Origin: Escherichia phage vB_Ec-M-J
Reading direction: 5' to 3' (one strand)
Sequence record: OQ718158.1
Length of the DNA: 64,000 nt
Shown here: positions 3,537 to 61,713 of the stretch, piece after piece
Numbering within the stretch: the stretch's first letter is position 1
Layout of the letters: each line of letters opens with the position of its first letter
Position numbers and translations under genes: made by a program
The notes under the pieces: generated by a model
The model's input: only the letters and a program-made list of their open reading frames with translations
Databases searched by the model: none
What the model was told of the DNA's origin: nothing

Positions 3537-3565
3537 GGTGCGGGAGTGTATCTATAGAAAAATTA
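3537..3565 (+). promoter_or_regulatory. conserved ~29-bp box (TAGCCCAyAGGGTGC..GTGTATCTAT)
   Basis: one of about 10 copies in the window, always 25-50 bp downstream of a promoter. Confidence 0.5.
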
Positions 3566-3567
3566 GT

Positions 3568-3600
3568 TTAGTACAGTTACAATTGTGCACCCGGTGGGTT
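3568..3600 (-). promoter_or_regulatory. inverted copy of conserved box
   Basis: reverse complement of GTGCACCCGGTGGGTTAGC matches the box. Confidence 0.45.
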
Positions 3601-3619
3601 AGCTGTTGTCATGGGGTAT

Positions 3620-3648
3620 ATTATGCCAGTACTTGATAATGCTGTCAA
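3620..3648 (-). promoter_or_regulatory. leftward promoter convergent with 3476 promoter
   Basis: minus strand TTGACA-17-CATAAT. Confidence 0.45.
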
Positions 3649-3693
3649 TACTTTTTTAATATTCAGTACTGAAAACTATTTTTAAAAAGTACT

Positions 3694-3720
3694 TGCAAAC
3701 TATGTTTAAAGGCGTATAAT
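3694..3720 (+). promoter_or_regulatory. early promoter (no immediate hairpin; long leader)
   Basis: TTGCAA-15-TATAAT-GTTTTACATC. Confidence 0.6.
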
Positions 3721-3810
3721 GTTTTACATCAGGACGGGGAACGAAATAAGTAACTTCCCGTTAAGTAGCCCAGGAGTAAGGCACACGAAAAACTCCCCTG
3801 ATAAAATAGT
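3721..3810 (+). promoter_or_regulatory. structured ~90-nt leader, duplicated at 14175..14262
   Basis: CAGGACGGGGAACGAAA.AAGTAAC..CCCGTTAAGTAG.CCAGGAGTAAG...AAAAACTCCCCTGATAAAATAG nearly identical in both copies. Confidence 0.5.
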
Positions 3811-3838
3811 TTGACAATTGTTTTTAAAAGCGTATAAT
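3811..3838 (+). promoter_or_regulatory. second (tandem) promoter before 3871 gene
   Basis: TTGACA-16-TATAAT. Confidence 0.5.
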
Positions 3839-3870
3839 ACTTACATCAACTACTGAATGAGGGTTACAAA

Positions 3871-4545
3871 ATGAAAACTATCACTACTACTACTTTCGTT
3901 ATGGATTTTTCTGAATTGAATGAGGGTTGCAAAGCGAAAACTGTCACTAATACTACTTTCGTTATGGATTTTTCTGAATTGAACGCAGAACAAAAAACGT
4001 CAGCTATCGAACTGGTTCGGGAACGTGAAAAAAACTTAAACGATGATTATTTTTCTGAAAGTGAAATTGAATACTATAAAGAAACAGTACTACCGGAATA
4101 TGGCATTAATGACGCTGAAATACAATTCAGTGGTTTTTGGTCCCAGGGTGACGGTGCATCAATCAGTACTGACCACGTTGACGCAGTGAAGTTTTTACGC
4201 AAGGTAAGAGCATTAACTAAATATCGCTCAATCCGTCACTTGCTGAATGAAGATGATTTGGCGATGAGTGTAAAGCGTTCTCACTCCCACTACTCGCATG
4301 AGAATACTGTAAGCGGGTACATTGAATCGGCTTACACTGATTTAACCGCAAAACAAGAAACGTTAGTTAATGAGCTTGAGGAACTACTCACTGAAACTAT
4401 TCGTGAATTATCCCGCAAGTTGTACCGTGATTTAGAGAATGCATATGAGGATCAATTCACTACTGAAAACATTACGGCACTGATTGAGGGTAACGAATAT
4501 CAATTCAATGTTATTAATGGCGTAGTAGAATCAATCGAATATTAA
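3871..4545 (+). CDS. hypothetical protein (224 aa) with N-terminal tandem duplication
   Basis: track ORF; TTTFVMDFSELN(E/A) repeated twice near N-terminus. Confidence 0.7.
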   Translation: MKTITTTTFVMDFSELNEGCKAKTVTNTTFVMDFSELNAEQKTSAIELVREREKNLNDDYFSESEIEYYKETVLPEYGINDAEIQFSGFWSQGDGASISTDHVDAVKFLRKVRALTKYRSIRHLLNEDDLAMSVKRSHSHYSHENTVSGYIESAYTDLTAKQETLVNELEELLTETIRELSRKLYRDLENAYEDQFTTENITALIEGNEYQFNVINGVVESIEY

Positions 4546-5203: not shown

Positions 5204-5261
5204 TGCAATTAGTTTTAAGTACTGTATAATGGTTTACATCAAAGGGAGAAATGGTTCTCCC
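5204..5261 (+). promoter_or_regulatory. early promoter + 5' stem-loop
   Basis: TTGCAA-15-TATAAT; hairpin GGGAGAAatggTTCTCCC. Confidence 0.65.
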
Positions 5262-5280
5262 TGGTAATGAGGAAAATAAA

Positions 5281-5502
5281 ATGGCTAATATCACTACTCT
5301 TTCCCAACTGGAAGCACTGGTTAAATCTATGCGGGAACATGCCGACAAAATCGGCGTACAAGATCCAGCCGTTTGCTTCTGCGACGAATTGAATGATGAT
5401 ACCCTGGTAATAGCAGAAGTCCAGGACGTTTCTAACTATTCCTCGCGTTACACTGGCGGCGTAGCAAATAAAGGTGACTTCTGTTTATACCTTACAAAAT
5501 AA
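5281..5502 (+). CDS. hypothetical early protein (73 aa)
   Basis: start moved to ATG after RBS GAGG; track start 5251 lies in hairpin. Confidence 0.6.
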   Translation: MANITTLSQLEALVKSMREHADKIGVQDPAVCFCDELNDDTLVIAEVQDVSNYSSRYTGGVANKGDFCLYLTK

Positions 5503-5505
5503 CAA

Positions 5506-5537
5506 CGCGGGGAGATAATAACTCCCCGTTACTTTTT
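5506..5537 (+). terminator. rho-independent terminator candidate
   Basis: CGGGGAGataataaCTCCCCG then TTACTTTTT. Confidence 0.5.
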
Positions 5538-5608
5538 CAGTACTGAATCATTTAATAGACGGATCTCGGCACCCGGTGGGTTAGTGACTGTTTCGTCTTG
5601 ATGTAGTA

Positions 5609-5637
5609 ATTATGCCAGTACTGGATGCACTTGTCAA
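5609..5637 (-). promoter_or_regulatory. leftward promoter reading into inverted box copy
   Basis: minus strand TTGACA-17-CATAAT; GCACCCGGTGGGTTAG downstream. Confidence 0.4.
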
Positions 5638-5670
5638 CAATTATTTTTCAAATACTTTTTATTAAAATAC

Positions 5671-5725
5671 TTGCAATTAGTTTTTAAACGCGTATAATGT
5701 TTTGCATAGGGGGAGCGGTTCCCCT
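5671..5725 (+). promoter_or_regulatory. early promoter + 5' stem-loop
   Basis: TTGCAA-16-TATAAT; hairpin GGGGGAGcggTTCCCC. Confidence 0.6.
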
Positions 5726-5745
5726 GGTAACTAAGGAATAAGAAA

Positions 5746-5982
5746 ATGGTCGAACAAATCAAATCAACGTCTTCGAATGTAACGGGAACGGTAGCACACT
5801 TTACTAGTGATGAATCGCGGGGCGTTCCCTATTGTGCTGTACATGTAAACACTGAGGGTAACTACTGGTTTACGGTTTACGGATCATATTCATTTGGACG
5901 GCCAGGGCATCAAAAAATTCTGGATAAAGTACAACCAACGGGTAAAAATATCACTGCCGAAATGTTTTATAAAAAATCATAA
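5746..5982 (+). CDS. hypothetical early protein (78 aa)
   Basis: track ORF; RBS AAGGAA. Confidence 0.6.
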   Translation: MVEQIKSTSSNVTGTVAHFTSDESRGVPYCAVHVNTEGNYWFTVYGSYSFGRPGHQKILDKVQPTGKNITAEMFYKKS

Positions 5983-5987
5983 AGTAC

Positions 5988-6046
5988 TTGCAATTAGTTT
6001 TTAGTACTGTATAATATTTTACATCGCAAGGGGGAGCGGTTCCCCC
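5988..6046 (+). promoter_or_regulatory. early promoter + 5' stem-loop
   Basis: TTGCAA-16-TATAAT; hairpin GGGGGAGcggTTCCCCC. Confidence 0.6.
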
Positions 6047-6366: not shown

Positions 6367-6387
6367 TAGATACTACGGGGTAACATC

Positions 6388-6618
6388 ATGACTAAGCGAA
6401 TTGTTTTACTTAACGAAAGCAGTACTACACAACTACTTAACGCCGTGCATTATGATATTGAAACGAGCGTTAATCTTATCAGTACTGTCGTACTGTTGGA
6501 CACTGGAAAGGTCGCCAATGATAAAGCGATTGCAGGTATATTAACGGATCTTGAGCCTGGTAGCAGTGCACCCATAACGTTAAATGGTAAAGTGTTTAAT
6601 ATTTTACTCACTGATTAA
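6388..6618 (+). CDS. hypothetical protein (76 aa)
   Basis: track ORF directly after 6067 gene; RBS GGGG. Confidence 0.55.
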   Translation: MTKRIVLLNESSTTQLLNAVHYDIETSVNLISTVVLLDTGKVANDKAIAGILTDLEPGSSAPITLNGKVFNILLTD

Positions 6619-6624
6619 GTACAT

Positions 6625-6650
6625 AGCCCACCTGGTGGGCTTTTTTTGTT
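6625..6650 (+). terminator. rho-independent terminator
   Basis: AGCCCACctgGTGGGCT then TTTTTTTG. Confidence 0.7.
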
Positions 6651-6701
6651 TTTGTAGTATCGTAGTACTGAGATACTTTGAAAATAGTTTTAAAAAAGTA
6701 G

Positions 6702-6729
6702 TTGACATTACCGCAGAAAAGCGTAGAAT
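6702..6729 (+). promoter_or_regulatory. sigma70-like promoter with long leader
   Basis: TTGACA-16-TAGAAT. Confidence 0.5.
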
Positions 6730-6852
6730 GTATTACATCAAGACGGGGAGCACTAAGTAGACCGCCAGTAAGTCGAACGAAAAACTGGACACGTCGAGAA
6801 AACTTTGATACACTAATAAACGTAAACTAAACTTTAATTGAGGATTTATAAA

Positions 6853-7335
6853 ATGGCTAATGTAAAATCATTCATCAAAGCACTGGTAGCAAATGAAACT
6901 AACGTCGCGGCTGAGATCCTGGCTGAACTGGATAACGATACCATGAAAGCGGTACGCAATAATTTTAACATCGCGTACAGTACTGCGAAAGAACTACAAG
7001 CAAATAAAGCGGCAGAAATTGAAGCGGCAAAGGCTGCCCGTGAAGCAGAACTACAAGCAACAATCGAAAGTATTCAGGCGGCAGTAGTTGGATTGGATCT
7101 GGAAGTAGTTACAGAGATGGCACAAAAAGCCCTGGCGGTTAAGTATGGGGAAGACAAGCCAGAAGTAAAAGCCAAAAAATGGATTCAGGAACGCGTAGCG
7201 GTAGTACTGGATAATGGGGAAGAATATCTGATTCCGGTGCGTGGTAACTGTATTGCGGTAGTACTGGACGCGATTAACGCCAGCGGTATGACTCGCGAGG
7301 AATGGATCGAATCTCATCGCAAAGTTGAAGCATAA
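6853..7335 (+). CDS. hypothetical protein, Ala/Glu/Lys-rich helical N-terminus (160 aa)
   Basis: track ORF; start moved from TTG to ATG after RBS GAGG. Confidence 0.65.
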   Translation: MANVKSFIKALVANETNVAAEILAELDNDTMKAVRNNFNIAYSTAKELQANKAAEIEAAKAAREAELQATIESIQAAVVGLDLEVVTEMAQKALAVKYGEDKPEVKAKKWIQERVAVVLDNGEEYLIPVRGNCIAVVLDAINASGMTREEWIESHRKVEA

Positions 7336-58566: not shown

Positions 58567-59415
58567 ATGAAACTTTATCTAATCGTTGACTACAGTAAGG
58601 GTTATTATGACTACGCAGAAGAATCTGAAGGGTATTGCTCGTCTACTAATGTCAATGTACGCACAAGTAATACACATGAGCATGAATCTATTACAAGCCT
58701 AAAAGATTTCATCGCATATCGAGCATTTGAAAAGAATTTCTGTCGTAGTAGATATTCGAAGTTTGAGTACCCGTTAATTGATGTTCCTGATGAATTGATG
58801 TTCCAGTTAATGCTCACTGGAGTACAAGATTATGATTACATCGCGTACAATCACATTACTAAGAAAATTTATATCGGTACGTCAACACATGACATTTCTA
58901 TGTATGCATCATGCCCCGATGATCGAATGAATGATAGAAAATCATACTATAGTGGATCAGTTGGTTCAAATGATTCATTAAATGAAAATTTATTCTTTGA
59001 GTACGAGTTTGATAATCATCGAGGGAATAAAGACCGAGAAGATTATTGTACTGAAATTGATAGTACCAATGGATATGAAGAAGTGAAAGAAGCGTTAATG
59101 CCATATATCCTTGACAAGTACTACAAAGATTTTCAGTACTGTAGTAATTTTCTAATCAGAAATTCTATCATAATAGGTCGTCAAAGTACTGCATTCTCTA
59201 AGTACTACAATGATTCCCCTGTTGCTGAAAATGAAAACTGTAATGTTCTCTCAATCCCACGTGAAGATATGGTATTCATGTTCACATCTTTCATTGAAGA
59301 TGATGAGTTGTATGTAAAAAACAAGCACAGGTTCATGCCAAGTAAGATTGAGGTTATGAGAAGCTTAAGTGCAGATATCTTAACGAATTTCACTGAAAAA
59401 ACAGAATACAACTGA
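58567..59415 (+). CDS. hypothetical protein (282 aa)
   Basis: track ORF; RBS GGGAGA. Confidence 0.65.
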   Translation: MKLYLIVDYSKGYYDYAEESEGYCSSTNVNVRTSNTHEHESITSLKDFIAYRAFEKNFCRSRYSKFEYPLIDVPDELMFQLMLTGVQDYDYIAYNHITKKIYIGTSTHDISMYASCPDDRMNDRKSYYSGSVGSNDSLNENLFFEYEFDNHRGNKDREDYCTEIDSTNGYEEVKEALMPYILDKYYKDFQYCSNFLIRNSIIIGRQSTAFSKYYNDSPVAENENCNVLSIPREDMVFMFTSFIEDDELYVKNKHRFMPSKIEVMRSLSADILTNFTEKTEYN

Positions 59416-59445
59416 GACATACCATAAGTTTATGATATAATGTAA

Positions 59446-59477
59446 GGTGACAGCAGAATATGTTGTCACCTTTTTTT
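59446..59477 (+). terminator. rho-independent terminator
   Basis: GGTGACAgcagaatatgtTGTCACC then TTTTTTT. Confidence 0.7.
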
Positions 59478-59479
59478 AA

Positions 59480-60005
59480 TCCTGAAAGGTTCCATATGGA
59501 AATGATTGAAGCCTAATCCACTCGAAAAGTAGAGGGTAGATGAGTAGTCCTTTCAGTACGAACAGCAAATGAAACCCGTTAGATGATGGCATAGTTTGAA
59601 CCACTCACGGCAATGCGGCTGTATAAAGAACTCCAATAGGATAAAGAGAGTTCCTCGATAGACATATAAGGATCGCACCTTACCAATTATCTAAGGGAGA
59701 TTTCATGAGAAATTTGCGGTCGTAATTTATACAAAATAGTTGCGTCCAAAATTCGTGAAATCAAATACAAGTACTGGTCATATGGTATTTGTATTATGTG
59801 TCGGGATGTTTAAGACCGACGACCGTTGCTACAAGAACCGCGATAGAGAGAAACAGAGCAACCCGCTTTCGCCTCGTAAGAGAATTCGTGATATGAACTA
59901 TGTGAAGGCCACCAGCGTCAAACTTTTTTTGTTCTTTCCCCTGCGGGGGGATGAAATATGCTCAAGCAAACCCCGTCAATATTAATTAAAACAAATCATA
60001 GTACT
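59480..60005. other. ~520-bp GC-richer non-coding island (candidate structured RNA or degraded gene)
   Basis: no RBS-supported ORF; composition differs from flanks; ends with CCCCtgcGGGG hairpin. Confidence 0.3.
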
Positions 60006-60009
60006 TTCG

Positions 60010-60038
60010 TTGAATTAGACATGCGAAGCGTGTATAAT
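60010..60038 (+). promoter_or_regulatory. sigma70-like promoter
   Basis: TTGAAT-17-TATAAT. Confidence 0.5.
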
Positions 60039-60658: not shown

Positions 60659-61183
60659 ATGTCGAAGAAGGATGCTTCGAAGAAAAAACAATCAGTACAT
60701 TTCAGTACTGGAAAAGATAACTGGACTACTCCAAAGGATTTCTTTGAAGATTTGGATGAACTCTGGGAATTTACACTAGATGCAGCGTGTGTCAAAGAAA
60801 CTGCATTGTGTGATAAGTTCTTTACACCAGAAGACAATTCACTTGAACAGGACTGGGGAAACAATATCGTGTGGCTCAACCCACCGTACAGTGATTTGAA
60901 AACGTGGTTATCTAAGGCAGTTGATGCATATAATAACGGGGCAACTGTAGTTATTCTTGTACCCTCAAGAACCGATACAATTGCTTTTCAGGATTATGCT
61001 GCTAAAATATGTGATTGTATTTGTTTTATAAAAGGTCGCTTAAAGTTCGGCATTCCTGAAGAACCAGATAAAAAGACGGACAGTGCACCATTCCCTAGTT
61101 GTTTAATAGTACTTGATAAGTATTTGACTCCAGCTAAAATCAACTATCTTAAATCTCTTGGTCAGGTGATGAAGAACATATGA
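60659..61183 (+). CDS. DNA N6-adenine methyltransferase (phage Dam-like family)
   Basis: WTTPKDFFEDLDELWEFTLDAAC ... IVWLNPPYS: NPPY catalytic motif in the arrangement of small phage Dam-type MTases. Confidence 0.7.
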   Translation: MSKKDASKKKQSVHFSTGKDNWTTPKDFFEDLDELWEFTLDAACVKETALCDKFFTPEDNSLEQDWGNNIVWLNPPYSDLKTWLSKAVDAYNNGATVVILVPSRTDTIAFQDYAAKICDCICFIKGRLKFGIPEEPDKKTDSAPFPSCLIVLDKYLTPAKINYLKSLGQVMKNI

Positions 61184-61713
61184 AAGAAACATGTATATTA
61201 TCATTTATGCGATGTAACCCAATACATCACGGACATGGTTTAGTGTTTGAAAAAGCTCAAGCACTACAAGAACAGTACAATGCGGATTTGAAAATATTCC
61301 TTAGTACCAGTACTGATGCCGTCAAAAACCCATTACCTCCTGAACTGAAAATGTACTATACAGAAGGATTTTACCCATCTGTACAAGAAAATATCTATAC
61401 AGAAGATAATCTGTTTGATATAATGAGAGAACTGGATGGAAAGTACTTAGATGTTCTTTTCATATGTGGTTCAGATAGACTTGAACCATTCCAAAAAACA
61501 CTTGACACGTACAATGGGAAGTTATATAATTTTTGTTCAATCAAGGCAGTTCAAGCTGGAATTGACCGAAATGTAAGTCGCTACAGTTCCACACAGATGC
61601 GTGAGTTTGCCAAGAATGAAGATTTTAATAGCTTCAGTACTTTTCTACCTGGTAATGATGATGCACTGAAAATTAAACTATTTGAAGATGTAATAAAATA
61701 CATGAGGAAATAA
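61180..61713 (+). CDS. HxGH-motif nucleotidyltransferase (NMN/NaMN adenylyltransferase-like)
   Basis: FMRCNPIHHGH near N-terminus and SSTQMR near C-terminus (ISSTxxR-like); ATGA overlap with MTase gene. Confidence 0.55.
   Translation: MKETCILSFMRCNPIHHGHGLVFEKAQALQEQYNADLKIFLSTSTDAVKNPLPPELKMYYTEGFYPSVQENIYTEDNLFDIMRELDGKYLDVLFICGSDRLEPFQKTLDTYNGKLYNFCSIKAVQAGIDRNVSRYSSTQMREFAKNEDFNSFSTFLPGNDDALKIKLFEDVIKYMRK

Follow-up and report, generated by a model that had tools for sequence, protein, structure and literature searches.

A stretch of 64,000 nucleotides (nt) from Escherichia phage vB_Ec-M-J (sequence record OQ718158.1; the whole stretch is called the window below) was found to carry, at positions 59448-59990, what is very probably a conserved structured RNA gene. 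The family to which this RNA belongs is previously undescribed: it is absent from Rfam 15, and no description of such an RNA was found in the searchable (open-access full-text) literature. The window is DNA of a jumbo coliphage of the 121Q/PBECO4 type (Asteriusvirus, ~350 kb): it shares 99.9% identity with Escherichia phage Turkey3 and 94-97% with 121Q and PBECO4. An earlier note, made from the letters of the window alone, had treated the region as a single local oddity; the region instead belongs to a family with several copies per genome that extends across the clade. The statement that we favour, and to which we give somewhat more than even weight as a whole, is that the region is an autonomous, pseudoknotted non-coding RNA gene of ~540 nt that probably acts in trans and is transcribed by the host early in infection.

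A 41-sequence family profile was used with nhmmer, and its sole match in the window is the body of the RNA, corresponding to the second of the copies in phage 121Q, termed c2.

59475-59985, + strand: body of the structured non-coding RNA (family match, E = 2.6e-116)

Members of the family are non-coding elements of ~480-590 nt. A core of ~480 nt (about 59506-59990) was recovered by blastn from 70 jumbo-phage records in a set of 50,697 phage records, and the carriers are jumbo phages of Escherichia, Salmonella, Klebsiella, Erwinia, Serratia, Yersinia, Cronobacter, Pectobacterium and 'Xanthomonas'. Orthologues in these records are 66-99.9% identical (66-76% outside Asteriusvirus), and each record has four to five matching places, in regions that are mostly unannotated. 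Over the whole genome of 121Q exactly four copies were found, all on the + strand, at about 90.3, 192.8, 247.5 and 326.6 kb (E values with the family profile of 1e-97 to 1e-122), each in its own unannotated gap of 610-840 bp; related genera have five. The paralogues are 56-73% identical. The three-helix core block of the RNA (59839-59890) served as the search motif for IMG/VR and for metagenome and genome collections. The IMG/VR scans placed the family solely in contigs of ~350-380 kb, and 43 metagenome loci were also recovered. A looser motif scan of IMG/VR for remoter relatives returned just more copies in the same jumbo contigs and random coding matches, and no family match was found among 72,556 plasmids. 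A higher-GC subgroup among the metagenome loci retains the 3' half of the RNA alone, and its members occupy positions syntenic with 121Q c4 and c2. In divergent relatives the genes for the portal and the baseplate hub adjoin the c4 position, where the encoded major capsid protein shares 77% identity with its 121Q counterpart. At least two copies (c2 and c4) are at syntenic positions across genera.

The RNA fold was modeled from 23 diverse copies (56-73% identity between clusters), aligned with MAFFT; the alignment is imperfect in the variable arms. RNAalifold predicted 81 pairs, of which 50 have compensatory double changes. To this prediction one nested helix and two pseudoknots were added from a covariation scan, and two unsupported invariant helices and one conflicting pair were removed, giving a final model of 88 pairs in 17 helices with the two pseudoknots included. 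In the final model 96.0% of cells were paired, compared with 76.6 +/- 0.6% in column-preserving shuffles (0 of 500 reached the observed value) and 39-43% when the register was slid by 1-3 positions. Sixty-two of the 88 pairs had changed on both sides, a number reached in 0 of 500 shuffles, against 42.8 in the shuffles and 19-27 with the register slid, and the covariation score was 0.533, against 0.186 for the shuffles and at most 0.10 for the slid register. Such controls cannot wholly remove phylogenetic signal, but the slid-register control together with the many independent pair types argues strongly against an artefact. The stability of the minimum free energy structure in single-sequence folding gave z = -1.5 for the + strand and z = -0.16 for the - strand; the signal that stands above chance is evolutionary and not thermodynamic. 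The + strand is the folded strand, because many of the G-U pairs would be A-C mismatches on the opposite strand. A structured RNA was among the options that the earlier note had listed for the region, and it is strongly supported by these data. The parts of the model are as follows, in order along the RNA.

59484-59554, + strand: 5' domain, in which helix H1 (59484-59489/59549-59554; 5 of 6 pairs compensatory) encloses H2 and H3
59490-59494/59497-59501, + strand: helix H2, 5 of 5 pairs compensatory
59513-59523/59532-59539, + strand: helix H3, 7 of 8 pairs compensatory
59562-59566/59618-59622, + strand: helix H4, 100% paired, 3 covarying pairs
59576-59579/59607-59610, + strand: helix H5, which with H4 flanks a highly conserved internal loop
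59628-59633/59648-59653, + strand: helix H6, 6 of 6 pairs compensatory, with up to 4 pair types per position
59661-59698, + strand: H7 (pairs 59667-59670/59679-59682, 2 of them covarying), a near-invariant GAUAGACAUAUAAGG...ACC hairpin followed by the invariant UAAGGGAG
59699-59702/59759-59762, + strand: helix H8, 4 of 4 pairs covarying, 100% paired, enclosing an optional module ('UACAAUAUAGAUCCGUC..AAAAUU')
59770-59775/59784-59789, + strand: helix H9, 5 covarying pairs, whose loop forms pseudoknot PK1
59777-59783 with 59891-59897, + strand: PK1, 7 pairs, 99.4% paired, 5 compensatory
59825-59829 with 59858-59862, + strand: pseudoknot PK2, GUUGC (within the invariant GACCGUUGC) with GCAAC in the 15-nt loop of H14; 5 pairs, 100% paired, 3 covarying
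59839-59890, + strand: core three-helix unit, H13 (59839-59843/59886-59890), H14 and H15
59846-59850/59866-59870, + strand: helix H14, with the most conserved block, UAGAGAGAAACAGAGCAACCCGCUU
59873-59876/59879-59882, + strand: helix H15

The pairs of both pseudoknots vary in a concerted manner among copies, PK1 being formed by UCAUAU/AUAUGA, UUGUAU/AUACAA, GUCGAAU/AUUCGAC or UUCAUGU/ACAUGAA, and PK2 by GUUAC/GUAAC, GUCAU/AUGAC, GUUGU/ACAAC or GUUGA/UCAAC. The distal part of the H4/H5 arm (59562-59622) is a swappable module, in place of which three copies (L019, L027 and L041) have a UUCG-closed hairpin. The module of ~45 nt within H8 is found in the paralogues at either of two positions (alignment columns ~345-400 and ~525-560; window 59705-59758) or, in 121Q c3, at both; some copies lack it. 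Its presence at alternative positions indicates internal shuffling of modules within the family, and the natural module swaps lend support to the helices. Several long unpaired stretches, namely GAUAGACAUAUAAGG, UAAGGGAG, GACCGUUGC and UAGAGAGAAAC..ACCCGCUU, are invariant, and such sequence conservation points to probable tertiary structure or ligand contacts.

Substitutions in the region track base-pairing and not codons, and this bears on whether a protein might be encoded. An 81-codon open reading frame (ORF) does exist over the RNA, and several GenBank records annotate two to six 'hypothetical proteins' across the region.

59740-59985, + strand: spurious 81-codon ORF, with a TTG start and no Shine-Dalgarno sequence; not a gene

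The absence of a ribosome-binding site for this ORF, as reported in the earlier note, was borne out. The ORF has no match to a PHROG family, and its C-terminal frame is displaced in the 121Q orthologue (96.6% identical) by an indel of 1 nt. Across the family, indels are not multiples of three and no frame is conserved, and the decayed acquired gene that the note had offered as another option was not upheld. A mini-ORF after GGGGGGATG was also considered and rejected, its frame not being kept; in other copies it is out of frame, truncated or absent (ATG TAA in 121Q c3, no ATG in c1). That the region is a decayed or very small protein-coding gene, whether the 81-codon ORF or the mini-ORF, we regard as scarcely credible. 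GenBank records place short 'hypothetical proteins' on either strand over the RNA gene, for example at L007:446-1046 (7t3_0243-0245), at L006:348-1006 (Kaldavass CDS0607-0609) and in 121Q (gp516, 247799-247954). The 'hypothetical proteins' annotated across the RNA gene are almost certainly false gene calls.

The RNA does not correspond to a known class. The Rfam scan proposed in the earlier note was run with all 4227 covariance models of Rfam 15 over the whole 64-kb window and gave no match at gathering thresholds; the structure is supported by covariation instead. At E<=10 the segment 59300-60200 had four chance-level matches, the best scoring 17.9 bits against a gathering score of 56; those to Hatchet (14.6 bits against 51, E = 8.8), DapZ and a snoRNA were rejected. 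ARAGORN found no tRNA or tmRNA in the window, and the covariance models for RNase P had no match. Two likenesses noticed by eye, of one segment to the J18/2-P4 region of M1 RNA and of another kind to a hammerhead, are supported by no model. The region had also been proposed to be an intron-like element, which does not agree with the results: no Rfam intron or ribozyme model, including RF00028, RF00029 and related models, matched at E<=10, the RNA has its own promoter, and the 121Q copy c4 stands between opposite-strand genes. The ORFs flanking the RNA in the window cover whole PHROG profiles (1-263/263 and 14-189/191), with a terminator and promoters between them, and an intron is excluded because these ORFs are complete. 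The group I introns of T4-like phages, unlike this RNA, interrupt genes and match RF00028.

A sigma-70-type promoter precedes the RNA in 33 of 33 non-redundant complete copies, with the consensus TGRRAC(A/G), a spacer of ~17 nt and TGnTATAAT (an extended -10 box). It is located 290-425 nt before the most conserved block in these copies and ~500 nt upstream of a G-run in all of them. In the window this promoter, which the earlier note had overlooked, lies upstream of the terminator of the preceding gene.

59414-59419, + strand: -35-like hexamer GAGACA of the RNA's own promoter (promoter scan; family consensus TGRRAC[A/G])
59433-59441, + strand: extended -10 box TGATATAAT (promoter scan and family motif), with a predicted start at ~59448
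59444-59472, + strand: 12-bp hairpin of the intrinsic terminator of the upstream gene, with a T-run to 59479
60010-60038, + strand: promoter-like site TTGAAT-17-TATAAT of the downstream gene (promoter scan), outside the RNA and part of the conserved locus layout

The transcript would thus measure about 540 nt, with a predicted start at ~59448 and a predicted end at ~59990 or beyond. Since the promoter sits just upstream of the terminator hairpin, the predicted start falls within the 5' arm of that hairpin, and other genera keep this arrangement of -10 box and hairpin in their orthologous 'c2-type' copies (L016, L018, L025, L028 and L080). A promoter that fires straight into a terminator hairpin (window 59433-59479) may provide a protective 5' stem, or may reflect avoidance of self-termination.

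The RNA element is independent of the identity and the orientation of the neighbouring genes. The genes that flank the four copies in 121Q are unrelated to one another, and c4, on the + strand, is flanked by two minus-strand genes (endonuclease VII and gp595). The position of the element between a terminator and the promoter of the next gene, and the terminator-like hairpin present in most copies, would suit a cis-regulatory leader, an attenuator or a 3' untranslated region of a neighbouring protein gene. This reading is nevertheless very improbable: neighbours differ from copy to copy and are unrelated again on bacterial islands (see below), the RNA is separated from the downstream gene by another promoter, and c4 is antisense to both of its neighbours, which already contradicts the reading and excludes a leader or untranslated region of the adjoining genes.

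The 3' part of the RNA is a module bounded by twin copies of a short motif, CGUCAR.

59916-59921, + strand: motif A, CGTCAA, the first of two direct repeats that co-vary in parallel
59924-59930, + strand: U-run, preceded in most other copies by a weak terminator-like hairpin that the window copy does not have
59937-59950, + strand: C-run/G-run hairpin UCCCC-UGC-GGGGG (C4/G6; helix 17, 97% paired), followed by a conserved GAUGAAA
59974-59979, + strand: motif B, CGTCAA, the second repeat; conservation across the family stops about 10 nt beyond

The terminator-like hairpin (helix 16) covaries at 5 of 5 pairs in the 16 sequences that have it, and the changes in helix 17 are from G-C to G-U alone. 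Motifs A and B, with the U-run and the C4/G6 hairpin between them, were both locatable in 40 of 41 family members, and after correction of one script mis-call (L025) the two variants agree in every one of these 40 RNAs: CGUCAG with CGUCAG, CGUCAAG with CGUCAAG, CGUCAAA with CGUCAAU, CGACAA with CGACAA (Serratia sp. 2723) and CGAAG with CGAAG (the divergent subgroup). Copies within one genome can carry different variants, and A and B are spaced 48 to 87 nt apart. No consistent site complementary to the motifs was found, and in the near-identical islands L088 and L089 a double U-to-A change in the motifs is accompanied by no compensating change elsewhere. Co-variation that is parallel and not complementary suggests a single partner or process that reads the two sites in cis.

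Identical motifs of 6-7 nt, placed on either side of a defined segment and changing together within each copy, could mark points of processing, ligation or template switching, and the RNA could accordingly be a self-processing or mobile element, such as a ribozyme, an ORF-less intron-like element or a copying template. Ribozymes are common among large pseudoknotted RNAs whose junction nucleotides are invariant, and this RNA is multi-copy, occurs in unrelated mobile contexts and has internal modules that were shuffled between positions. We consider the reading improbable all the same. No Rfam ribozyme or intron was matched (Hatchet, as given above, fell far below its gathering score), no gene is interrupted by the element, and the copies are old, with c2 and c4 syntenic, and show no target-site duplications or terminal repeats. 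The A-B units are not multiples of three, most contain stops in every frame, a concatemer would have no stop-free frame, and no reverse transcriptase is annotated in 121Q. Templates of the UG27 and DRT2-type reverse transcriptases were considered and rejected, as their unit size and architecture differ and a stop-free concatemer is lacking here.

Full-length copies were also found in bacterial records: the chromosome of Serratia fonticola GTA-SR07, Serratia sp. 2723, an Enterobacteriaceae metagenome-assembled genome (MAG) and two of 5,426 complete E. coli genomes. The copy of E. coli LR-29-1 (NZ_AP027515.1) is at L117:14962-15549 (E = 4e-124), and further copies are at L089 ~3560-4330 (- strand; S. 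fonticola), L088 ~5230-6010 and L087 ~6370-7080. All lie in AT-rich integrated DNA, and the family-type promoter was present wherever upstream sequence was examined. The islands differ in their contents.

S. fonticola island: large serine recombinase, two ParB/RepB-like genes and a duplicated rof site
Serratia sp. 2723 island: large serine recombinase directly at the host junction
MAG island: CI/S24-type repressor
E. coli island, ~10.5 kb, beside ffs: tyrosine integrase disrupted by IS3, and a DuOB/DUF488/mSLOG-DUF4326 gene set

The DuOB/DUF488/mSLOG-DUF4326 set matches the candidate defence system PDC-M45. Around the RNA no protein is shared among the islands or with 121Q, and each cross-match proved to be a translated piece of the RNA itself; the absence of shared proteins implies that the unit of promoter plus RNA moves as a self-contained cassette. 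Elsewhere on the E. coli island, the mSLOG-DUF4326 protein (L117:17999-18592, - strand) has a 41%-identical homologue of 109 amino acids in 121Q (231088-231405, E = 1.5e-15), which adjoins nrdD/nrdG; this gene family is common to island and jumbo phage and is unrelated to the RNA.

The main rival to the trans-acting RNA gene draws on the layout of the cassette. It is that the element is a cis-acting origin of replication with a structured primer RNA, similar to ColE1 RNA II or to the R-loop origins of T4, and our analysis puts it as unlikely, yet well worth weighing. Host RNA polymerase would make an RNA of ~500 nt whose G6 run would hybridize with the template C-run after a U-rich pause; the persistent hybrid would be processed and would prime DNA synthesis into the downstream AT-rich stretch. 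The four to five dispersed copies would then be the origins of the phage, and the one-copy islands could replicate with the enzymes of the host or of a helper phage. The copies are indeed dispersed (90, 193, 247 and 327 kb in 121Q), the positions of c2 and c4 were kept despite the divergence of the paralogues, and diverged paralogues at kept positions suggest a position-dependent role. In ColE1, RNA II starts at a sigma-70 promoter that precedes the transition point by ~500-555 nt, and the antisense RNA I overlaps its 5' ~110 nt; RNA II forms a persistent R-loop, which RNase H processes, and supports replication. The cassette described here likewise is predicted to give a structured, sigma-70-driven transcript of ~500 nt that leads to a 3' G-run/C-run and then to AT-rich DNA, here with conserved hairpins; it too is self-contained without a linked protein gene, and it is portable to islands. 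The twin direct repeats that change in parallel are iteron-like. T4-type phages use several R-loop origins, and like T4 and its relatives (oriF/oriG) the jumbo phages have a T4-related set of replication and structural genes and dispersed non-coding loci with their own promoters.

Against an origin, the upstream 430 nt, with two covarying pseudoknots and many invariant loop nucleotides, are constrained far beyond what known primer RNAs require; the structural constraint is far stronger than in RNA II, and T4 origins have no conserved RNA fold. There is no homology to RNA II and no Rfam match to RNAI or any ColE1 element, no match was found in the 72,556 plasmids, and the promoter scan found no minus-strand promoter-like site within 59440-59700 that might drive an RNA I-like antisense transcript from the 5' region. 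The variable spacing of motifs A and B does not suit an origin either, and for the islands, which lie in chromosomes, a further active origin there would pose a difficulty.

Under the reading that we favour, host RNA polymerase would transcribe the RNA gene early in infection, and the folded RNA would itself be the product, acting in trans as a scaffold, a catalyst or a decoy. Its invariant loops and its 3' module, in which the twin CGUCAR motifs flank the U-run and the C4/G6 hairpin, may be its contacts with a host or phage partner. Dense invariant unpaired nucleotides are typical of RNAs with sophisticated biochemical roles. Their presence here, and the ability of the cassette to work in contexts that share nothing else, are the grounds for regarding the RNA itself as the product and its action as in trans; since the RNA is all that islands and phages have in common, any partner is more likely to come from the host, or else the RNA needs none. 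On the narrower question of whether the RNA acts in trans or in cis, we judge the two sides to be evenly balanced.

Several observations weigh against the favoured reading. Trans-acting RNA genes retained for dosage are usually near-identical, and the divergence of the paralogues, together with the synteny of c2 and c4, would fit a position-dependent cis role at least equally well. The thermodynamic stability of the fold is marginal, as given above, and the c2-type promoter appears to fire directly into a terminator hairpin. The 3' end is ambiguous, because in most copies a terminator-like hairpin precedes the conserved C4/G6 block. The parallel co-variation of motifs A and B without a complementary partner is not predicted by a simple scaffold model. 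No RNA-seq data for this clade were found in the open-access full text, and transcription remains predicted.

A bolder form of the favoured reading is that the family founds a new class of large functional RNAs with multiple pseudoknots (ribozymes, or RNA-only or ribonucleoprotein machines), which giant enterobacterial phages keep as four to five specialised paralogues and which defence-type islands have captured. We advance this tentatively, and doubt it somewhat more than we believe it. If true, the RNA would have a role in phage-host or phage-satellite conflict, or in starting the replication of a 350-kb genome, and the concertedly evolving twin CGUCAR motifs would mark a processing or template-switching step without known precedent. 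To our knowledge, few large RNAs of complex fold have been recognized (rRNA, RNase P, group I and II introns, tmRNA, OLE, GOLLD, ROOL and raiA), and almost every one of them proved to be catalytic or to form a remarkable assembly.

GOLLD (RF01998), ROOL (RF03087), OLE and raiA are large 'ornate' non-coding RNAs without a known biochemical function (PMC12286853, PMC5737381). The jumbo-phage RNA is like them in its length of several hundred nucleotides, its many covarying helices and pseudoknots and its invariant unpaired nucleotides, and also in being a stand-alone gene on phages, prophages or mobile elements. It has no Rfam 15 match to any of them, even at E<=10. Its occurrence in Enterobacterales jumbo phages differs from theirs, and it alone has four to five diverged copies per genome, at least two of them syntenic. 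GOLLD and ROOL are frequently adjacent to tRNA genes, whereas the tRNA cluster of 121Q (72-78 kb) contains none of the four copies of this RNA. Homo-oligomeric assembly from RNA alone is characteristic of GOLLD, ROOL and OLE.

The distantly related jumbo phage PA5oct has four ORF-less regions of 236-619 nt that were defined by RNA-seq as 'putative lncRNAs' (long non-coding RNAs; ncRNA001-004), two of them very abundant (PMC7318152). The PA5oct RNAs show that long non-coding transcription from host-type promoters takes place in this phage lineage, but they have no significant similarity to the jumbo-phage RNA family, nor to one another. The best nhmmer matches were two collinear same-strand segments in the 619-nt ncRNA004 (L114:710-793 and 973-1017; E 0.3-0.5, not significant), which fall on the 'AUAGAUCCGU' module and on the 'UUCCC..GGGGAGGAAAU' block. 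A pair of sequences in ncRNA004, 'ACCGAAAC' and 'CCCGAAUAU', resembles the pair of motifs A and B, again not significantly.

The replication and host takeover of RaK2-type jumbo phages are, as far as we know, very little understood. Culturable jumbo coliphages (121Q, PBECO4, phAPEC6, G17 and others) make the RNA directly testable, and it is tractable by virtue of its clear promoters, its natural module-swap variants and its four paralogues. Its presence on E. coli islands with defence-like genes links it to the biology of phage satellites and defence, and for annotation the family matters because many GenBank records place spurious 'hypothetical proteins' over it.

With respect to the locus in the window, the landmarks reported in the earlier note were confirmed in part. 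The ORF-poor gap at 59480-60005 between a terminator and a promoter holds, as both signals were located and no credible ORF lies between them. The higher GC content of the gap is present but modest, and weaker than had been stated: it is 0.407, compared with a window mean of 0.347 (standard deviation 0.038), or +1.6 standard deviations, and since 7.7% of equal-sized windows are at least as GC-rich, GC content alone is unremarkable. The hairpin CCCCTGCGGGG, said to end the segment, is present at 59938-59948, but the conserved element continues beyond it to about 59985-59990.

Downstream of the RNA, a small hairpin, CATGCGAAGCGTG, is located at 60020-60032 within the spacer of the promoter-like site at 60010-60038, and analogous elements of TTGACA plus a spacer hairpin are found downstream of most other copies. 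Most copies, among them L015, L017, L020, L024 and L033, also have in the downstream 120 nt another conserved long hairpin, whose loop is ACGAAGUGA-like, followed by TTGACA and a small spacer hairpin, CATTCGAAGAATG. The long hairpin and the TTGACA element may form a regulated promoter, or they may belong to a longer transcript. Further along the window, the ORF at 61180-61713 has as its 121Q orthologue gp418, annotated as 'ribonucleotide reductase A / NrdB'; the protein of 177 amino acids had no Pfam match at E<=0.001, and the NrdB annotation of gp418 looks doubtful. At the other end, a 2-kb stretch that is unannotated in 121Q (window ~1.9-3.8 kb) contains merely small ORFs on the + strand.

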